Shown here: positions 2,889 to 61,749 of the stretch, one piece after another
How the letters are laid out: every line of letters begins with the position of its first letter
Numbering within the stretch: the first letter of the stretch is position 1
IMG/VR virus record: IMGVR_UViG_2811995368_000001
Coordinates: 11,894 to 75,893 of that record
Length of the DNA: 64,000 bases
Direction: 5' to 3' (one strand)
Source: a virus
Lineage: Duplodnaviria; Caudoviricetes
The notes under the pieces: generated by a model
Seen by the model: only the letters and a program-made list of their open reading frames with translations
Told to the model about the DNA's origin: nothing
Database searches by the model: none
Program-made: the position numbers and the translations under genes

Positions 2889-3455
2889 TCAGATGGTTCC
2901 GAACGGATGCAGGCACCGCTTGGCGTCGATGTACGCCTGCTGGGCCTGCAATGGGTCGGAGAAATGGCCCAGGAATTGACGCTCCCGGTTCAGCGTGATG
3001 TGGGCGCGGAATGTGCCTTCGCGCCGGCCTTGGCTGACGCCTATCAGGCCGGTGCTGCTATGCCGCGCTGCGCGGCGGCGGTTCTGCTGGTTCTCGGTAT
3101 TCGAGAGTTCGCGCAGGTTGCCGATGCGGTTGTCGTCGCGCCTGCCGTTGATGTGATCGACCAGCTTTTCCGGCCAGACCCCATACATGTAGAGCCACGC
3201 GAGACGGTGCGCGTTGTAGTCCTTGCCCGCGATGCGAATGCGGACGTAGCCGTTGCGCCGCGTGCCGGCGGGTTTGCCGGCGGGAGCGCGGTTCGACTGG
3301 GGAACACGCCAGGTGAAGACGCCGGTGTAGGGGTCATAGTGCAGAAGGAGCCGGAGCACTTCCGCCGTGATCGCCGGAGTGCCAGTTTCCGCGCCGCGAA
3401 AAAACCGGGCGGCCTGCTCGGCAGGCTCGCCCGGATACATGACACATGCCGACAT
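2889..3455 (-). CDS. HNH homing endonuclease with C-terminal AP2-like DNA-binding domain (start uncertain)
   Basis: AHRLAW...VDHINGRRDDNRIGNLR HNH motif; GVS...FRAHITLN...LGHF...AQQAY AP2-like tail. Confidence 0.85.
   Translation of the reverse strand: MSACVMYPGEPAEQAARFFRGAETGTPAITAEVLRLLLHYDPYTGVFTWRVPQSNRAPAGKPAGTRRNGYVRIRIAGKDYNAHRLAWLYMYGVWPEKLVDHINGRRDDNRIGNLRELSNTENQQNRRRAARHSSTGLIGVSQGRREGTFRAHITLNRERQFLGHFSDPLQAQQAYIDAKRCLHPFGTI
3399..3434 (-). terminator. Hairpin downstream of VR2 (DGR target-recognition hairpin) followed by T6, also shaped like an intrinsic terminator
   Basis: Minus strand CCGGGCG-A-GCCTGC-CGA-GCAGGC-CGCCCGG-TTTTTT. Confidence 0.7.
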
Positions 3456-3461
3456 GACCCA

Positions 3462-4436
3462 TTACACCTTTGCGAGGCGACCGCCGATACTCGCGTTGAC
3501 GTCCGACGCGGGATTATTGACATTGAGGCAGAACAACCCATCGTTCGCCCCGTTCGCCCAATGGCCGCCGTGGTAGGCGACGCCGCCAGACCAGAACCAC
3601 GAGTAGTTGCCGTAGGCCGCGTCCTCTTGCTCGTCGCGGGTCTTCTTCGGCACGAACACCGCGCCCAGGTCGAAGCCCTCGCCGACGTTGCGCAGGCGCT
3701 TGTGGATCCAGCCATGCTCCGGCGCTTCGATGCTGGTGTTGAGCAGGTTGCGGTGGCCGTCCTTGCCCCAGATGAGGAACTCGCGGTTCGCGCTGGTCTG
3801 CAAGCCGTCCAGCATCTGCCAGACGTTACCCCAGAGGCCCGTGATGCCACGGTAGGCGGCCTGCACCACCTCGGCGTCATCGACCTTGCGCACGCCGTTT
3901 CCGTCGGTGTAGCCCTCGCCCAGAATGGACTTGACGTTGGGCGTGCCGCACTCGATCAGGGCCAGCGCCTGGATGGCCGCGAGCTGGTAGATGCTCCACA
4001 ACATCCAGCCATCGCCGCGCGCGGCGGCGCGCGCCTGCATGGTGGGGAAGTCGATGCGCGCCAGCGGCATCAGGCCGGCTTGCGAACCCAGCTTGTCGTC
4101 GCCGTCCGGCGTGCCCTGGTACTTGCCCAGCCAGTATTGCGCGAGGTCGGCGCCGTGGTTGCGGAAGGCCGGATGCAGCGCGTAGCCTTCGGCGGGTTCG
4201 TCGCTCACCCAGAGCGCCTTCTTGCCCAGCAGCGGGCCGTCGCGCACGATGTCGGAGCGGTAGTAGAAGGCCGGCACACGCACCATGCTCTGGCCGTCGA
4301 TGTCCTCGTCGGCGATGCCGGCGAAAGTCGGGTGGTTGCTGAAGAAGCTGGCGTCCGGGTCGATGATGGCGCCGCTGTTGTCGATGCGCGTCCAGGGCGC
4401 GTGCTTCTTGCCGAAGACGATGCCGATTTGGCTCAT
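3462..4436 (-). CDS. DGR target protein 2: stand-alone C-type-lectin-fold (Mtd/FGE-like) domain, paralogue of tail-fibre C-terminus
   Basis: ATG at 4436 with AAAGGA RBS (324 aa); collinear similarity to last ~330 aa of 56485-59049 (HPTF/HPTY, MVRVPAFY/MVKVPAFY, LHPAF, ADLAQYW.GKYQG, IDFPTMQARA, GLW.NVWQM.DGL); ends in VR2 and GGRLAKV. Confidence 0.92.
   Translation of the reverse strand: MSQIGIVFGKKHAPWTRIDNSGAIIDPDASFFSNHPTFAGIADEDIDGQSMVRVPAFYYRSDIVRDGPLLGKKALWVSDEPAEGYALHPAFRNHGADLAQYWLGKYQGTPDGDDKLGSQAGLMPLARIDFPTMQARAAARGDGWMLWSIYQLAAIQALALIECGTPNVKSILGEGYTDGNGVRKVDDAEVVQAAYRGITGLWGNVWQMLDGLQTSANREFLIWGKDGHRNLLNTSIEAPEHGWIHKRLRNVGEGFDLGAVFVPKKTRDEQEDAAYGNYSWFWSGGVAYHGGHWANGANDGLFCLNVNNPASDVNASIGGRLAKV
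3469..3572 (-). repeat. DGR variable repeat VR2
   Basis: 104 bp, 99/104 identical to TR 60420-60523; all 5 mismatches at TR adenines. Confidence 0.95.
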
Positions 4437-4681
4437 GTTGATGTCCTTTGCGTTGATGGGGGTGCTTGATGGGCGGTGATGGGTTCCGGCTTTCACCATG
4501 TCCGGCATGGGCCTGTGCGCGTTCAGGCTCGCGTCCTACTCGCTGCGTCTGGCTGCGCACGACCGCCGGGGCAGTCCCATACCAGCATCCGCTTTCGTTC
4601 CGGTTTCCACGACCTCCGGCTGGTCGAATAGACATGCGCCCGGTTTGATTCCCAGTCCAGCCTGTCAGTGGGGTCGGAAGG

Positions 4682-56484: not shown

Positions 56485-59049
56485 ATGTCCCTGCCCAACC
56501 CGAATATCACGCCGATTCCGAACAACGAGCCGGACGCCGTTCCCTCGCTGTGGAACACGCGCTACCAGGAAATCGACGAAAACTTCACCGCCCTCGATGA
56601 GCGCCAGGCGAGCGTCGAAGACGAGCTGAACGAAGCCAAGGGCGACGCGCCCAGCTTCGCCGCGAAGATGAACCAAGTGGCGCAGGCCGTGCAAGACCTG
56701 GGCGGCGACATCGGCGATCTGCAAGGCATGACTGCGCCCATGCTGGCGCGCGCCGTGCGTCTGGACTGGGACTACTCGGGCAACAACATCAGTCTGGAAA
56801 TGTGGGTCGGCGAATACACGCTGACCGACACCCAGCCCATCGCCGTGACCTCTGCCGTGGCCGGTGACGATTCCATCGACGTGACCGATTCCAGCTTCTT
56901 CGAGCCGGGCCAGAACTACGTCATCTACAACGCGGCACACGCCGAGCAAGTCCATGTCGATGCCGTGCTGACCAGCACCCGCGTCCGCGTCTCCGCGCCG
57001 CTGGCATTCGCCTACGGCGGCGCCGGCGCGTTCCTGGCTCGCACCTCGTTTGCCGTCGCCAACGGCACGGCCCAAGCCAAGCCCGGCGCAGCCTACTTCA
57101 GCAAGCCTATCAATCTGGGCTTCGACGGCTCCAAGCGCGCCGTGGTCATCCGCCGCACGCCCACCGCATCCGTCGTGAATGTCGATTTTCTGATCGATGG
57201 CAATTGGGTGAGTGCGCCGCTCGCCTGGACGCGCTCCGGCGGCAAGGTGCCGGAAGGCTATATCGACTGCGAATACGAACTTCTGGTCAATGGCGACACC
57301 GCGCTGCGCGTGACCGTCGTCGGCGGCGCCGGTAATACCGAGATCCAGCACATCATCGGCCTGGGCACCGTCACCGGCCTGCGTGGCACGCACACGTCGC
57401 CGCTGAAGCCCGTCATGTCCAACCCCGTCGATGGCGCGACGAACCTGACCGACCGCCCGACGCTGGGCCTGACCGGCTATTCCTCGCCCACCGACACGCC
57501 CGTGGGCGCAGTGCAGTTCCAAGTGTCCGCCACCGCCGACTTCGCCGAGGTCATCATCGACAGCGGCACGCAAGTGGGCGGCCTGTCCTGGCAAGAAATC
57601 GGCCTGCGCCTGCAAGTCAGCAGCAGCTACTTCGCCCGTGGCCGCGCGCGCGACGCCGAGGGCGCATGGTCGCCGTGGTCTGACCCTGTTTCGTTCTCCA
57701 CGGCAGCGTCCTTCGTCTATGTGCAGGCGCCCTCGAACGTCGGCCCGGCCAACAACCTGACCAACGTCGCCGACACGCCCACGCTCTCGTCCAGCAGCTT
57801 CGCCGTCTATGCTGGTTCGGATACCCAGGCGGCGGCCCAGTGGCAAATCCGCGAAGCCAGCGCGTCCTACGACGCCTCCACCCTGGACACCGGCGAAGAT
57901 GCCACGCATCTGACCTCGCTGGCCGTTCCCGCCGGCGTGCTGAAGTCCTCGAACACGCAATATTTCTGGCGCGTCCGCCACAAGGGCACCGCGCATGGCT
58001 GGTCGGAATGGTCGGTGGAAACGAAGTTCACCACCAAGAAGATTTTCGGCACCGTCGTCGGTATCGCCCTGATTTCGACGGGCGCGACTTCCGGTTCCTG
58101 GGCGCGCATCGACGAGGATGGCAACGCGAAGACCACCGACGCAGCCTTCTTCAACGCGCACCCGACCTACTCTGGCATCGTCGATCAGACCATCGACAGT
58201 CAGGCGATGGTCAAGGTGCCGGCCTTCTACATCAAGACCGGCCTTGTGGCGTCCGGTGCCTACGTCGGCAAGAAGGCGATCTGGGTTTCCGACAAGAAGG
58301 AAACTGGCTTCGAGCTGCACCCGGCTTTCAAGAACGCCGGCGCTGACCTGGCCCAGTATTGGGTCGGCAAGTACCAGGGTTCCAATGCTTCGGGCAACAA
58401 GCTGGCGTCCGTCACCGGCGTCGCTCCGCTGGTTTCCATCGACTTCCCGACGATGCAGGCCCGCGCGAACGCGCGCAACACCGGGGGCGTTACGGGCTTC
58501 TCGCTCTGGAACATCTACCAGCTCTCCGCGCTTCAGATGCTGGCCCTCATCGAACTGGGCAACCCGGACGCGCAGACCCTGATCGGCCAAGGCAACTCGA
58601 ACAGCTCCGCCGCTACCAACGTCGATGCGTCGCCCACGTCGCAAGCCTCGTGGCGCGGCATCATCGGCCTCTGGTCGAACGTCTGGCAGATGGTCGATGG
58701 ACTGCAAACCGACGCCAGCCTGAAATACAAAATCTGGGACAAACAGGGAAAAAAGACCTACATCACCACGAACCAGGTGGCGCCGTCGGCTTCGGCCTCC
58801 TACCCGGTCACGATGTCCGTGGATGCCGGCGCGAACTACGACCTGTCGCAAGTGTTCCTGCCCGCCACCATCGACGCTTCGGCCTCGAACGGCACGTATG
58901 CGGACGCCTTCTGGTCGGCTGCGAACTGCGTGGCCTACCACGGCGGCTGTTGGGCGAACGGGGCGAACGGTGGGTTGTTCTGCCTCGGTGTCGATAATCC
59001 CGCGTCGAGCGTCTACACGGGTCTCGGCGGTCGCCTCGCAAAGGTGTAA
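56485..59049 (+). CDS. Tail fibre/receptor-binding protein, DGR target 1 (two FN3-like domains + C-terminal CLec-fold domain)
   Basis: End of tail operon; WSPWS and WSEWS FN3-like modules; C-terminal VR1 ending GGRLAKV. Confidence 0.9.
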   Translation: MSLPNPNITPIPNNEPDAVPSLWNTRYQEIDENFTALDERQASVEDELNEAKGDAPSFAAKMNQVAQAVQDLGGDIGDLQGMTAPMLARAVRLDWDYSGNNISLEMWVGEYTLTDTQPIAVTSAVAGDDSIDVTDSSFFEPGQNYVIYNAAHAEQVHVDAVLTSTRVRVSAPLAFAYGGAGAFLARTSFAVANGTAQAKPGAAYFSKPINLGFDGSKRAVVIRRTPTASVVNVDFLIDGNWVSAPLAWTRSGGKVPEGYIDCEYELLVNGDTALRVTVVGGAGNTEIQHIIGLGTVTGLRGTHTSPLKPVMSNPVDGATNLTDRPTLGLTGYSSPTDTPVGAVQFQVSATADFAEVIIDSGTQVGGLSWQEIGLRLQVSSSYFARGRARDAEGAWSPWSDPVSFSTAASFVYVQAPSNVGPANNLTNVADTPTLSSSSFAVYAGSDTQAAAQWQIREASASYDASTLDTGEDATHLTSLAVPAGVLKSSNTQYFWRVRHKGTAHGWSEWSVETKFTTKKIFGTVVGIALISTGATSGSWARIDEDGNAKTTDAAFFNAHPTYSGIVDQTIDSQAMVKVPAFYIKTGLVASGAYVGKKAIWVSDKKETGFELHPAFKNAGADLAQYWVGKYQGSNASGNKLASVTGVAPLVSIDFPTMQARANARNTGGVTGFSLWNIYQLSALQMLALIELGNPDAQTLIGQGNSNSSAATNVDASPTSQASWRGIIGLWSNVWQMVDGLQTDASLKYKIWDKQGKKTYITTNQVAPSASASYPVTMSVDAGANYDLSQVFLPATIDASASNGTYADAFWSAANCVAYHGGCWANGANGGLFCLGVDNPASSVYTGLGGRLAKV
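58939..59042 (+). repeat. DGR variable repeat VR1
   Basis: 104 bp, 92/104 identical to TR; all 12 mismatches at TR adenines. Confidence 0.96.
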
Positions 59050-59080
59050 TGGGTCATGTGACCTGTGTCATGTAGCAGTT

Positions 59081-59106
59081 GGGCGAGCGCGCCAAGCGCG
59101 CCGCCC
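59081..59106 (+). promoter_or_regulatory. DGR target-recognition hairpin downstream of VR1/IMH
   Basis: GGGCG-A-GCGCGC-CAA-GCGCGC-CGCCC; same architecture as hairpin after VR2. Confidence 0.8.
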
Positions 59107-59126
59107 CATGAAGAAAGGAGCAGTAA

Positions 59127-59708
59127 ATGCAAATTCAAGACGGTAATCTGGTGGTGGAAGTCGAAGGCTCCACCATGACCGTGCCGCTGCCCGAAGTGGC
59201 AACCGCTGCCAAGGTCAAGGCGTATCTCGTCCCCGAGGCGTACCGTCCCGGTCGCCTGTTCGTTTCGGTCACGCTTCCCGGCCAGCCGGAAGAAGTGCCG
59301 GCGTGCGGCCAGGATCTGGTCGAACTGCTGGGCGAGGACACTCTCGAAGCCAGCGACGCGGCCATCCTCAACGCGGCCAAGGCGGCCAAGCTGACCGAAA
59401 TCAACGCCGAGTGCCAGAAAGCGGTGGCCGCGCTGGCGAAGGACTACCCGGACAGCGAAGTGCAATCCTGGCCCCAGCAGGTCAAGGAAGCCACGGCCCT
59501 GTCCGCTGACCCGCAAGCCGACGCGCCGCTGCTGACTGCCATCGCCACGGCGCGCGGCCTCCCGGTCGCCGAGCTGGCCTCGCGCGTTCTCGACAAGATG
59601 AACGCCTATGCGGCGGCGTCCGGCGTGCTGATCGGGCAGCGCCAGGCCGCCGAATACCTCATCACCGCAGCCGAAGACCTGGAAGCCCTGTCCGCCATTT
59701 CCTGGTAA
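59127..59708 (+). CDS. Tail fibre assembly-like protein
   Basis: YPDSEVQSWPQQVKEA...APLLTAIATARG pattern; follows fibre gene. Confidence 0.7.
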   Translation: MQIQDGNLVVEVEGSTMTVPLPEVATAAKVKAYLVPEAYRPGRLFVSVTLPGQPEEVPACGQDLVELLGEDTLEASDAAILNAAKAAKLTEINAECQKAVAALAKDYPDSEVQSWPQQVKEATALSADPQADAPLLTAIATARGLPVAELASRVLDKMNAYAAASGVLIGQRQAAEYLITAAEDLEALSAISW

Positions 59709-59724
59709 GCGGGCGAGGTGCCAG

Positions 59725-60033
59725 GTGAAGCAATACTGCGCACGCCTCGCCCTGCTGCTGGGTTCCATGTTGATGACGCTGGCGGGGAACCTGCTGGCGC
59801 TGGCGTCGGCCATCGCGGGAAGTGACCGCGCTTTCCGTGTCGCCGTCTCCAACGACCAGACCCTGAACGCCGCGCTCGACGGCAGCGAGGATGAAACCAT
59901 CAGCAGCCGCGCCGGAAAGGCCGCCCGCGAGGGCAAGCGGTGGGGGTGCGTCCTGTGCAGGCTGCTCAACGTCTTCGACAACGACCATTGCCAGAAGACC
60001 ATCGAAGAGGACGAAGGAGAGAGGCTGGTTTGA
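59725..60033 (+). CDS. Conserved small phage protein
   Basis: DQTLNAAL.G..DETISSRAG...LC..L...D.DHC. Confidence 0.65.
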   Translation: MKQYCARLALLLGSMLMTLAGNLLALASAIAGSDRAFRVAVSNDQTLNAALDGSEDETISSRAGKAAREGKRWGCVLCRLLNVFDNDHCQKTIEEDEGERLV

Positions 60034-60386
60034 AAAACAACGACGCATACCAAAAGCTCATCACCAAGTTGGAAGAACTCGACGCCTATACGCACACCGT
60101 CCTGCATCAGTTCCCGAAGCTCGAAAGGCATCTGCTCTGCGCTGAAATGCGCGCCGCCATGAACAAGGTATGCCGTCTGGCCGTCGTGGCGTGGAAGCGC
60201 CGCCAGAAGGCTTCGTCGCTTTTCGATTTGGACGTGGAGATCGAGGTGTTCCGGCACTTCATCCGCAAGGCCCACCGCCTCGAATACATCAACACGCATC
60301 GCCTGGAAGTCTGGATGAGACACACCAATGAGATAGGCCGCATGGTCGGCGCGTGGATCAAACACGAAGGAGCCGCCATGTCGTAG
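60030..60386 (+). CDS. avd: DGR accessory variability determinant
   Basis: TTG start after GAAGGAG; 118 aa basic helical protein QFPKLERHLL...LDVEIE...EIGRMVGAW; directly upstream of TR. Confidence 0.9.
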   Translation: MKNNDAYQKLITKLEELDAYTHTVLHQFPKLERHLLCAEMRAAMNKVCRLAVVAWKRRQKASSLFDLDVEIEVFRHFIRKAHRLEYINTHRLEVWMRHTNEIGRMVGAWIKHEGAAMS

Positions 60387-60419
60387 CACCCCCAGTTTTT
60401 TGAAAGGGCAAGGGCTTAT

Positions 60420-60523
60420 AACGGCGGCAATTGGGCGAACGGGGCGAACGATGGGTTGTTCTGCCTCAATGTCAATAATCCCGCGTCGAACGTCAACACG
60501 AATATCGGCGGTCGCCTCGCAAA
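60420..60523 (+). repeat. DGR template repeat (TR)
   Basis: AAC/AAT-rich copy of both VRs between avd and RT; 3' end GCAAACGAC differs from VR GCAAAGGTG (IMH* vs IMH). Confidence 0.96.
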
Positions 60524-60530
60524 CGACTAA

Positions 60531-60684
60531 TGCCAGAAGGCGCGCGGCCCACGGGCCGCCGTCCAGTGCATATCCTTTGGGGCCTTTGTCCAGACCATGT
60601 TGTCGAAGATCAACAGGGCGCTGCGGCCAGTAGCCGGGAAACCGGCGGACGTGGCAGCGCCCGACCACTCCCGAATAGGAAGAC
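60531..60684 (+). ncRNA. Structured TR-RT spacer of DGR RNA
   Basis: GCGGCC-CACG-GGCCGC hairpin; GGGCGCTGC...GCAGCGCCC stem (60616-60662) enclosing GCCGG-GAAA-CCGGC. Confidence 0.6.
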
Positions 60685-61749
60685 ATGCCGCGCACCGTAA
60701 ATGGCCTATGGGAAGAGCTGACCACCTTTGAAAACCTGCACCTCGCCTACATGGGCGCGCGTGACGGGAAGCGGTATCGCAACGAGGTGATGCAGTTCTC
60801 GGTAGAGGCCGAAGAAAACCTCTTCAACATCCAGAATCACATGCTCTGGAAGACTTGGAAACCCGGCCCGCAGCGCGAGTTCGTGGTACGCGAGCCAAAG
60901 CTGCGCCTGATTCAGGCTCCGCCATTCCAGGATCGCGTCGTTCATCATGCGCTGGTGCAGGTCGTAGAGCCGCACTTCGAGCGCCGCTTCATTTCCGACA
61001 GCTACGCCTGCCGCGAAGGCAAAGGCACCCAGCGCGCCGTCATGCGCGTGCAGCACTTCCTGCGCGTGGCGAAGCGGAACTGGGGCGACGGCATCTACGT
61101 GGTGAAGGCGGACATCAGCAAGTATTTCGCCAGCATCCAGCACCACATCCTCATGGACGAGGTGGAGCGCGTCATTTCGGATCCTGACGTGCTCTGGCTG
61201 TGGCGCCAGGTCATCAGCGGCTACGGGCACGAAGCCGGCTTGGGCCTGCCGGTGGGCGCGCTGACAAGCCAGCTCGGCGCGAACATCGTCCTGAACCGCC
61301 TCGATCACATCGTCAAGGACGACATGGGCGTGCGCTTCTACGCTCGATACATGGACGACTTCGTGGCCGTGCTGCCCGACAAGGCCAGCGCCCAGCGCGT
61401 GCTCCGTGAAATGGAGCGCATCGTGAATAGCCTGGGCCTGTCGCTCAACCCGAAGACGGCAATCCACCCGTGGCAGCGCGGCATCGACTTTTGCGGCTAC
61501 CGCATCTGGCCGACGCACATCCTTCCCCGCAAGCGCAACATCAAGCGTGCCCGCGCCGACTTCCGCCGGCTCATGTGCGAACACTTCGTGGGCGAGGTGA
61601 GCCTGGCCGAAGTACGCCAGCGGGTGATGTCGTTCCTCGCCTATGCGAAGCATTGCCAGGCCCAGCGCACCGTCGAAGGCGTGCTTGGCGACTTGGTACT
61701 GGTTCCCGGCCTGCGCGACATCCCCGAACGGCTGGCGCTAGGCGGCTGA
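60685..61749 (+). CDS. DGR reverse transcriptase
   Basis: 354 aa; PKLRLI, FQDRVVHHA, SYACR.GKG, KADISKYF, GLPVGALTSQ, RYMDDF, GIDFCGY; no maturase or nuclease domain. Confidence 0.96.
   Translation: MPRTVNGLWEELTTFENLHLAYMGARDGKRYRNEVMQFSVEAEENLFNIQNHMLWKTWKPGPQREFVVREPKLRLIQAPPFQDRVVHHALVQVVEPHFERRFISDSYACREGKGTQRAVMRVQHFLRVAKRNWGDGIYVVKADISKYFASIQHHILMDEVERVISDPDVLWLWRQVISGYGHEAGLGLPVGALTSQLGANIVLNRLDHIVKDDMGVRFYARYMDDFVAVLPDKASAQRVLREMERIVNSLGLSLNPKTAIHPWQRGIDFCGYRIWPTHILPRKRNIKRARADFRRLMCEHFVGEVSLAEVRQRVMSFLAYAKHCQAQRTVEGVLGDLVLVPGLRDIPERLALGG

Follow-up and report, generated by a model that had tools for sequence, protein, structure and literature searches.

A bulged hairpin and a heptamer array behind both variable repeats of a prophage retroelement: a probable recipient-specific signal for retrohoming

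How does a diversity-generating retroelement (DGR) recognize which of its repeat copies is to be overwritten? Target finding and entry by the DGR cDNA, the role of the initiation of mutagenic homing (IMH) sequence, and the discrimination between variable repeat (VR) and template repeat (TR) have been posed as open questions (PMC12875486). The window analyzed here, the final 64 kb of the 75.9-kb IMG/VR provirus record IMGVR_UViG_2811995368_000001, carries a complete DGR at its right end and represents a natural experiment, with one reverse transcriptase (RT) and two oppositely oriented targets, VR1 and VR2, in the same phage. Behind each VR lies a copy of a 64-nucleotide (nt) stretch that most likely constitutes the recipient-specific part of the DGR target site, telling retrohoming which repeat copy to overwrite. 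The position, uniqueness, conservation, covariation, and VR specificity of this stretch are direct observations, as is the adenine-only diversification of both VRs.

The element occupies positions 59043-59106 (+) at VR1 and 3468-3405 (-) at VR2. In both VRs, the last stretch shared with TR ends in ...CGGCGGTCGCCTCGCAAA and is followed by GGTGTAATG, which holds the stop codon TAA (59047-59049 in VR1). After GGTGTAATG come GGTCATGT, a 4- or 5-nt spacer, and TGTGTCATGTA; the order of the element is GGTGTAATGGGTCATGT, the spacer GACC (VR1) or CGGCA (VR2), TGTGTCATGTA, a short linker, and a hairpin. A first-pass annotation made from the sequence alone had described this common flank with its spacer and hairpin, and it proved correct to the base at both VRs. 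Its repeated GTCATGT is likewise present in two copies, but these are really the outer members of three tandem heptamers with TG at unit positions 5-6. At VR1, the lag-7 self-match of the array reached 13 of 21 compared positions, a value attained by none of 2000 shuffles. The inner stem of the hairpin reads GCGCGC/GCGCGC at VR1 and GCCTGC/GCAGGC at VR2. Two adjacent pairs, 3 and 4, have changed from G-C to C-G and from C-G to T-A, and both are still paired, as expected for the compensatory exchange that had been claimed. Apart from these compensated changes in the stem, a single loop base and a single spacer are all that distinguish the two recipient signals.

Both copies stand out from the rest of the window. 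As single-stranded DNA, the 73- and 74-nt elements folded with -18.7 and -20.0 kcal/mol (z scores of -4.3 and -5.3), and none of 200 shuffles was as stable. With a covariance model of the element, the two VRs scored 90.3 and 85.6 bits, and no other place in the 64 kb exceeded 11.4 bits. The 17-mer count in the window was 2 against 0.03 expected, with none of 100 shuffles reaching 2. No relevant Rfam match was obtained for positions 58800-60800 or 3200-3700 at E values up to 1. A second helix within the array, the palindrome GGTCA-TG-TGACC, was considered and rejected: only 73.7% of its alignment cells were paired, and its register shifted between lineages. The region is therefore read as heptamer repeats and not as a second helix. 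Mini-ORFs (open reading frames) in the array (ATG-TGA and ATG-TAG at VR1) were also discarded; VR2 does not preserve them, and its ATGs instead lead into the frame of an HNH endonuclease gene.

The system qualifies as a DGR by a DGR-type RT gene next to an Avd gene and by a TR/VR pair that differs at TR adenines. Counted by eye in the alignment, 10 positions in the core of VR1 and 4 in that of VR2 depart from TR, all of them TR adenines, and non-adenine differences are confined to the 5' edge and the IMH. At the 3' end, the GC-rich run CGGCGGTCGCCTCGC is the same in VR and TR. It is followed by GGTGTAATG in the VRs and by CGACTAATG in TR, with 3 mismatches in 9 positions and full divergence thereafter, which is the pattern of an IMH and its TR counterpart, IMH*. 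No adenine-type differences between VR and TR occur 3' of the GC run.

The comparison of the two targets showed where similarity is retained. Between the VR1 and VR2 regions, the 150 nt 5' of the VR are 58% identical in DNA. Identity rises to 87% in the VR core, which homing resets, is 78% in the element (52 of 67 columns), and drops to 43% in the next 60 nt. The element lies 3' of the TR/VR homology and is never rewritten, so its preservation needs a cause other than homing. Judged from this comparison, the element at both targets must be kept by selection and is most probably not leftover similarity. The gene carrying VR2 encodes a paralogue of the C-terminal 342 amino acids (aa) of the VR1 protein (48% identity, E = 9e-109, BLASTP). 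The same two-target layout was found in 10 further genomes, where one VR lies beside the cassette and the second about 8-63 kb away (distances by our own arithmetic). Adenine positions of the genome's own TR are diversified in both VRs of all 11 two-VR genomes, and most non-adenine differences fall within the IMH or at the 5' edge. Non-adjacent targets within one prophage are a known class (Wu 2018, PMC5758913). Metagenome contigs from four runs of four studies cover the VR2 flank with its element from 3300 to 3481/3487 (3349-3487 in run X2), and each differs from it by a single letter; they stop at the VR edge, except that X2 skips 70 diverged nt there. They show 29 variable places in the VR, 18 of them at TR adenines where A makes up 21 of 76 bases, and serve as supporting evidence only, because they mix VR1, VR2, and TR of related phages. 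The first-pass annotation had suggested that VR2 is a real target under selection. The four of four core differences at TR adenines, the paralogous protein, and the layout recurring in ten other genomes agree with this, and on these grounds VR2 is a real, working target. In one related contig, the two VRs are 8.4 kb apart.

Relatives were collected with the VR-end pattern CGGCGGYCGYCTCGCAAAGGTGT, which is IMH-like and ends before the element. The loci came from an RT search (13), a motif search (14, one of them unrelated), and a scan of species-representative genomes (30), yielding 55 sites with 38 distinct 80-nt flanks. The unrelated locus, L018, was a chance match outside any VR context. Hosts include Castellaniella, Bordetella hinzii, Comamonas, Xylophilus, Gulbenkiania, Pseudomonas, and Ectothiorhodospira, and element types persist across Beta- and Gammaproteobacteria. 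A hairpin was present in 37 of the 38 distinct flanks, 20-31 nt 3' of the stop codon; the remaining flank, L032, was excluded from the alignment (n = 37). The loop of the hairpin is a CRA triloop in 35 of 37 cases (16 CAA, 18 CGA, and one CAA with a mismatched closing pair). The two others are the 4-nt loops GATA and GGTA of the Ectothiorhodospiraceae loci L039 and L040, which belong to the IMH group of the window itself. According to the bracket structures, 27 flanks have a single unpaired base in the 5' stem arm and 4 have it in the 3' arm, whereas 6 have none.

The covariation analysis in homologues that the first-pass annotation had proposed as a check came out positive. In a structure-independent MAFFT alignment, 91.6% of the cells of the hairpin helix were paired and 8 of 10 counted pairs changed on both sides, although the shared ancestry of the relatives makes these counts larger than the number of independent events. 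The covariation score over both counted helices (15 pairs) was 0.235, compared with 0.104 ± 0.012 for shuffled alignments, none of 500 of which reached 0.235, and with at most 0.122 for slid partners. RNAalifold independently predicted the same hairpin helix. Seven different inner-stem sequences occur among the relatives, and it is the structure rather than the sequence of the stem that is conserved. The TG of the three heptamers is kept in 34, 37, and 37 of the 37 relatives (alignment columns 24, 32, and 39). In some lineages the units change together, as in L014, where they read GTTTTGT AACTTGT GTTTTGT. In Pseudomonas sp. UMAB-08 (L037, 1761-1840, -), the top of the post-VR hairpin, GCCCGCCGAGCGGGC, is present as two tandem copies in the roughly 35 nt that follow the VR.

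On the TR side, the claim that the element is missing held only in part. The GTCATGT units and the CRA hairpin are absent, and the covariance model of the element gave 8 bits there; yet TR has a bulged hairpin of its own, which starts six bases 3' of its TAATG. This hairpin covaries, with stem pairs changing on both sides among 18 distinct relatives. Its architecture of four outer pairs, bulge, and six inner pairs resembles that of the VR hairpin, but it is a different element. The coordinates of all features are compiled in Table 1.

Table 1. Positions of the DGR features in the window
Feature	Position	Strand	Basis and remarks
VR1	58932..59051	+	Direct repeat, 86% to TR; core starts at ACGGCGGC
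IMH-like end of VR1	59025..59051	+	GC-rich run CGGCGGTCGCCTCGC identical in TR, then AAAGGTGTAATG where TR has AAACGACTAATG
VR1 heptamer array	59053..59073	+	Three tandem units GTCATGT GACCTGT GTCATGT, TG at unit positions 5-6
VR1 hairpin	59081..59106	+	GGGCG-A-GCGCGC-CAA-GCGCGC-CGCCC; 5 bp, bulged A (59086), 6 bp, loop CAA (59093-59095)
VR2	3460..3579	-	86% match to VR1 query in record; alignment to TR
VR2 heptamer array	3437..3458	-	GTCATGT CGGCATGT GTCATGT, 8-nt middle unit; lag-7 shuffle p = 0.018
VR2 hairpin	3405..3434	-	(CC)GGGCG-A-GCCTGC-CGA-GCAGGC-CGCCC(GG); 7 bp, bulged A (3427), 6 bp, loop CGA (3420-3418)
Six-T run directly 3' of VR2 hairpin, intrinsic-terminator-like	3399..3404	-	Tail count 6 T in 8
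TR, IMH*-like end	60413..60532	+	Repeat search, alignment to VRs
TR-side bulged hairpin, TR-RT spacer	60539..60563	+	GGCG-C-GCGGCC-CACG-GGCCGC-CGTC; flanked by GCCAGAAG and CCAGTGC
Target gene 1, tail protein, 854 aa, VR1 at 3' end	56485..59049	+	ORF list; phrog_5302 'tail protein' 4.6e-33; Pfam Ig_Rha78A_N 1.7e-07
avd (accessory variability determinant)	60033..60386	+	Pfam bAvd 3.1e-24
DGR reverse transcriptase	60685..61749	+	Pfam RVT_1 1.3e-24; 38% identity to BPP-1 Brt
Target gene 2, 348 aa, carries VR2	3462..4508	-	phrog_5302 3.7e-36; BLASTP to target 1

We infer that the module acts in retrohoming and that it acts as DNA. It would consist of three parts: the IMH-like end of the VR, that is, the GC-rich run common to TR followed by the few bases in which VR and TR differ; the three TG heptamers, which TR lacks; and the GC-rich, bulged CRA-triloop hairpin, which could be extruded as a DNA hairpin or cruciform. 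By analogy with the DGR of BPP-1, the adenine-mutagenized TR cDNA would join the target within the GC-rich run, and array and hairpin would raise the efficiency of joining and fix its direction from TR to VR, never the reverse. The module lies 3' of the replaced segment. Therefore, homing never rewrites it, and selection must keep it at each target, as it appears to do at VR1 and VR2. The view of the first-pass annotation that it is a portable targeting signal is supported by the covariation, by its presence after VRs whatever lies downstream, and by its fit to the IMH and hairpin of BPP-1.

In BPP-1, a 21-bp part of the IMH sets the directionality, and its five VR/TR mismatches determine the direction of transfer (Guo 2011, PMC3240598). 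The hairpin or cruciform requires the stem structure and not the stem sequence; its 4-nt GRNA loop is critical, as changing GAAA to CTTT or adding 2 nt abolished activity, and IMH plus hairpin are enough to retarget a heterologous gene (PMC3240598). Deletion of the stem-loop also impaired editing in a reconstituted Escherichia coli system (PMC12875486). The module described here is like that of BPP-1 in lying at or just past the 3' end of the VR, beyond the TR/VR homology, in having a GC-rich run common to TR followed by a differing stretch, and in its GC-rich inverted repeat with structure conserved over sequence. The VR1 hairpin starts 29 nt 3' of the end of the TR/VR homology, within the 4-34 bp of the MyDGR hairpin rule, which further asks for a 7-10 bp stem and a GRNA loop (PMC6602519), and the hairpin on the TR side is a different one. 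In other respects the two systems differ. The loop has 3 nt (CAA and CGA) instead of 4-nt GRNA, and the stem comprises 11 bp at VR1 and 13 bp at VR2, each with a 1-nt bulge, instead of 7-10 perfect pairs. The stop codon precedes the VR1 hairpin by 31 nt, whereas the BPP-1 hairpin directly follows it. IMH* matches 16 of 21 positions in BPP-1, whereas TR shares nothing with the VR flank here after a 9-nt partial match, and the RTs themselves are far apart (Table 1). Functional equivalence to BPP-1 is thus an assumption, because the loop here is a 3-nt CRA and loop size and sequence are critical in BPP-1.

Other systems with similar hairpins are known. The DGRs of Nanoarchaeota (Paul 2015, PMC4372165) have target hairpins with a tightly constrained triloop ending in R-A; they differ in the first loop base, which is G and not C, in the intragenic instead of intergenic position of the hairpins, and in their archaeal hosts. 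Phage DGRs with GRNA hairpins (Vibrio VP58.5/VHML type, Aeromonas phiARM81mr, Pseudoalteromonas ACA1, and Bacillus BalMu-1) show the same order of VR end, three to four tandem heptamers ending in (C/T)TG, and GC hairpin. They differ by tetraloops, perfect 7-9 bp stems, the unit WWTCTGW instead of GTCATGT, and an RT identity of 38-47%. What is new here is the form of a known cis-element, namely the CRA triloop, the bulged 11-13-bp stem, and the long, array-filled spacer; the lists of Wu 2018 may already include members of the clade. Constrained triloops are otherwise known only from the Nanoarchaeota DGRs (GRA; PMC4372165). The MyDGR rule would miss a whole clade of Beta- and Gammaproteobacterial prophages, in which bulge and CRA triloop are tolerated or preferred.

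Could the hairpin instead be an intrinsic terminator, or a stabilizer of the 3' end of the target mRNA, kept for expression and without a role in retrohoming? A GC hairpin at a gene end is what Rho-independent terminators look like, and the TTTTTT directly after the VR2 hairpin completes the resemblance. Five of the 37 relatives have at least 5 T within the 8 nt after the stem. Wu et al. weighed the same idea, with terminators after the IMH in a minority of DGRs (PMC5758913), and Guo et al. likened the BPP-1 hairpin to group IIC introns, which home beside terminator stem-loops (PMC3240598). A consensus terminator scan called nothing at the VR1 or VR2 hairpin, which is explained by the bulge breaking its rule; the tails were therefore judged by eye and by count. 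Unlike a Rho-independent terminator, 32 of the 37 copies have no U-tract, and because of this the element is unlikely to be a general terminator. The VR1 hairpin has no T-tail, and the Shine-Dalgarno (SD) site and ATG of the next gene follow within 21 nt; 26 of the 37 flanks similarly run straight into the next gene with an SD-like site and a start codon. Moreover, the conserved CRA loop, the bulge, and the adjoining heptamer array are needless for a terminator, and one and the same module occurs in two downstream contexts. We therefore consider a purely transcriptional role improbable, although the VR2 copy probably also terminates transcription. Heptamers and hairpin could also form an operator for a DNA- or RNA-binding protein that regulates genes of the tail-fibre module, for instance by translational coupling or repression, independently of DGR targeting. 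Tandem short repeats beside a hairpin are typical of protein-binding sites, and the VR1 element lies just 5' of the ribosome-binding site of the ORF 59127-59708. However, the genes 3' of VR1 (phrog_2618) and VR2 (HNH endonuclease) are different, the element tracks the VRs and not the neighbours in 11 two-VR genomes, and the array is VR-specific in 73 DGR lineages with unrelated neighbours, all of which makes such an operator quite unlikely. Least of all do we expect the similarity to be a passive leftover of a duplication or gene conversion of the VR1 3' end with an unselected flank. Near-identical flanks within one phage do occur in some relatives (L020/L022 and L017/L030) and fit recent copying. 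In the window, by contrast, the genes have diverged down to 48% protein identity and the DNA to 43% identity right after the hairpin, while the differences within the element fall in spacers or are compensated in the stem, and the element types persist across two proteobacterial classes.

Several points weigh against a recipient-specific retrohoming signal. Loop and bulge lie outside the published consensus, and the tail behind the VR2 copy is that of a perfect terminator, with T-rich tails in 5 of 37 relatives. The BPP-1 hairpin is not strictly essential (PMC12875486), and a confident inverted repeat was reported for only 34% of 372 surveyed DGRs (PMC5758913). One of the 38 flanks, that of L032 on a 1.6-kb contig of a metagenome-assembled genome, has neither array nor hairpin. 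To these come the mixed origin of the metagenome contigs, the common ancestry that inflates the number of independent covariation events, and the TR's own hairpin, which the statement that TR lacks the element overlooks.

The heptamer array recurs more widely than the element of this clade. The same pattern was seen in distant annotated phages with canonical tetraloop hairpins, including Vibrio phages and Bacillus BalMu-1. In Pseudoalteromonas ACA1, TTGATTA TTGAAAT TTGAACC is followed by CCCGGGC-GATA-GCCCGGG, and the array of Aeromonas phiARM81mr reads GCTTTGG GCCTTGA GTTTTGA. A wider sample was drawn from an RT alignment, which gave 80 IMG/VR loci with RT identities of 37-78%. Adding the previous RT loci and those of annotated phages brought the total to 94 analyzed loci; a VR was found in 89, and 73 representatives remained after removal of near-duplicates. 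For each of these 73, array statistics were computed over 60 nt at the 3' end of the VR. The mean self-match peaked at lag 7, with 0.36 compared with 0.263 ± 0.007 for shuffled sequences, and the best lag was 7 in 39 loci and 8 in 15. Chains of at least three TG at a spacing of 6-8 nt occurred in 62 of the 73 post-VR windows, compared with 4 post-TR windows, 11 cases inside the VR, and 21.3 ± 3.8 in dinucleotide-preserving shuffles; for chains of at least four TG, the count was 53 against 5.6 ± 1.9. The post-VR array is strand-specific, with 222 CTG versus 18 CAG. The post-TR windows of the 73 loci mirror this excess, with 147 CAG versus 52 CTG. The units are (C/A/T)TG heptamers, and their consensus is (A/G)(A/T)TCTG(A/T).

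The array is also commoner than the hairpin. A detector allowing one bulge or mismatch found a hairpin of at least 7 bp in 43 of the 73 lineages (30 GRNA, 9 CRA, and 4 other loops), compared with 62 for the array, and the nine CRA loops all come from loci with an RT at least 66% identical to that of the window. About 20 lineages, counted by eye, have an array and no hairpin. Many low-GC phage DGRs carry four to six AATCTGA-type units without a GC hairpin, and their array runs straight into the next gene. Such low-GC loci are L082, L083, L085, L086, L095, L096, L100-L102, L105, L106, L110, L129, L131, L136-L138, and L142. In BPP-1 itself, the GC-only run is followed by 21 bp with the sequence TCTGTGACCACCTGATTCTTG in VR and TCTGTGCCCATCACCTTCTTG in TR, which differ by five mismatches. 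This VR stretch contains three TG units at 8- and 7-nt spacing, and three of the five IMH* mismatches remove the middle CTG unit. The heptamer array coincides with the experimentally defined 21-bp directionality determinant of BPP-1. A partial full-text search of the DGR literature, including passages of Guo 2011, Wu 2018, MyDGR, Paul 2015, and PMC12875486, found no description of post-VR heptamer repeats. The array represents a concrete, mutable motif for tests of target recognition and for the design of a minimal portable DGR target.

The heptamers might be the local form of a widespread, undescribed DGR target determinant, consisting of 3-6 strand-specific (C/T/A)TG units 3' of the VR on the cDNA-pairing strand and serving as a programmed start of Okazaki fragments. 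The determinant would take the form GTCATGT/GACCTGT here and WWTCTGW in most phage DGRs. BPP-1 editing is favoured when the cDNA-pairing strand is the lagging-strand template (PMC12875486), and d(CTG) in the template is the start site for primers made by gammaproteobacterial DnaG primases (Larson 2010, PMC2978363). The array could be a programmed priming site because d(CTG) lies on the expected lagging-strand template and matches the start preference of DnaG. A fragment started at the array would extend back to the annealed cDNA and meet its 5' end, so that the cDNA could be sealed into the genome, and the hairpin would hold the template open. Against such priming, the clade of the window has CTG only in the middle unit, the other units being CATG, and global changes in DnaG level or recruitment left BPP-1 editing unaltered (PMC12875486). 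We regard this proposal as unlikely.

The TR-RT spacer is presumably an RNA that recruits the RT-Avd complex and primes cDNA synthesis. In BPP-1, the corresponding spacer recruits the RT-Avd complex (summarized in PMC12875486). The spacer of the window (60533-60690) matched no Rfam family. It is strongly conserved among the 18 distinct relatives, with GCCAGAAG, the covarying bulged hairpin, CCAGYGC, TCCTTTGGGGCC, GTCCWGACCATGYTGTCGAAGAT, and ACAGGGCG. A pairing of the post-VR array with the spacer RNA was considered and dropped, as no covariation was seen by eye. Lineages with TTG units, such as L063, keep CCAGAAG and CCAGTGC in the spacer, and L014 and L015 alter the units without a matching change in the spacer; both observations, also made by eye, speak against the pairing. 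In L011 (2014-2111), and also in L013, a second AAC-rich, TR-like repeat lies about 1.7 kb 5' of TR, without a recognizable VR with the usual flank. L011-L013 gave no VR flank because the only other repeat looks like this second TR-like copy.

The cassette adjoins VR1 in the order avd, TR, and RT. Two small ORFs lie between target gene 1 and avd, the first gene 3' of VR1 (ORF 59127-59708) encoding a phrog_2618 protein. A DNA search of annotated phages returned five weak matches and no close relative of the cassette. An integrase gene is encoded near the RT gene on the opposite strand, and no convincing repeat indicating prophage attachment (att) sites was found between the right end of the record and its left 21 kb. 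The neighbours of target gene 2 are phage early and recombination genes, namely those for a RecE-like exonuclease, an HNH endonuclease, and an adjacent tRNA-Met. The HNH endonuclease gene 3' of VR2 (2889-3455, -; HNH_3, 3.8e-15) has a frame that extends without a stop across the VR2 hairpin as far as the ATGs in the GTCATG units, and its true start may lie 3' of the terminator-like hairpin. Target 2 reproduces, as a separate gene, nothing but the receptor-binding C-terminal part of the tail protein; it lies on the opposite strand, some 55 kb away from the cassette. If the phage circularizes past the integrase, target 2 would be only a few kb from the RT gene.

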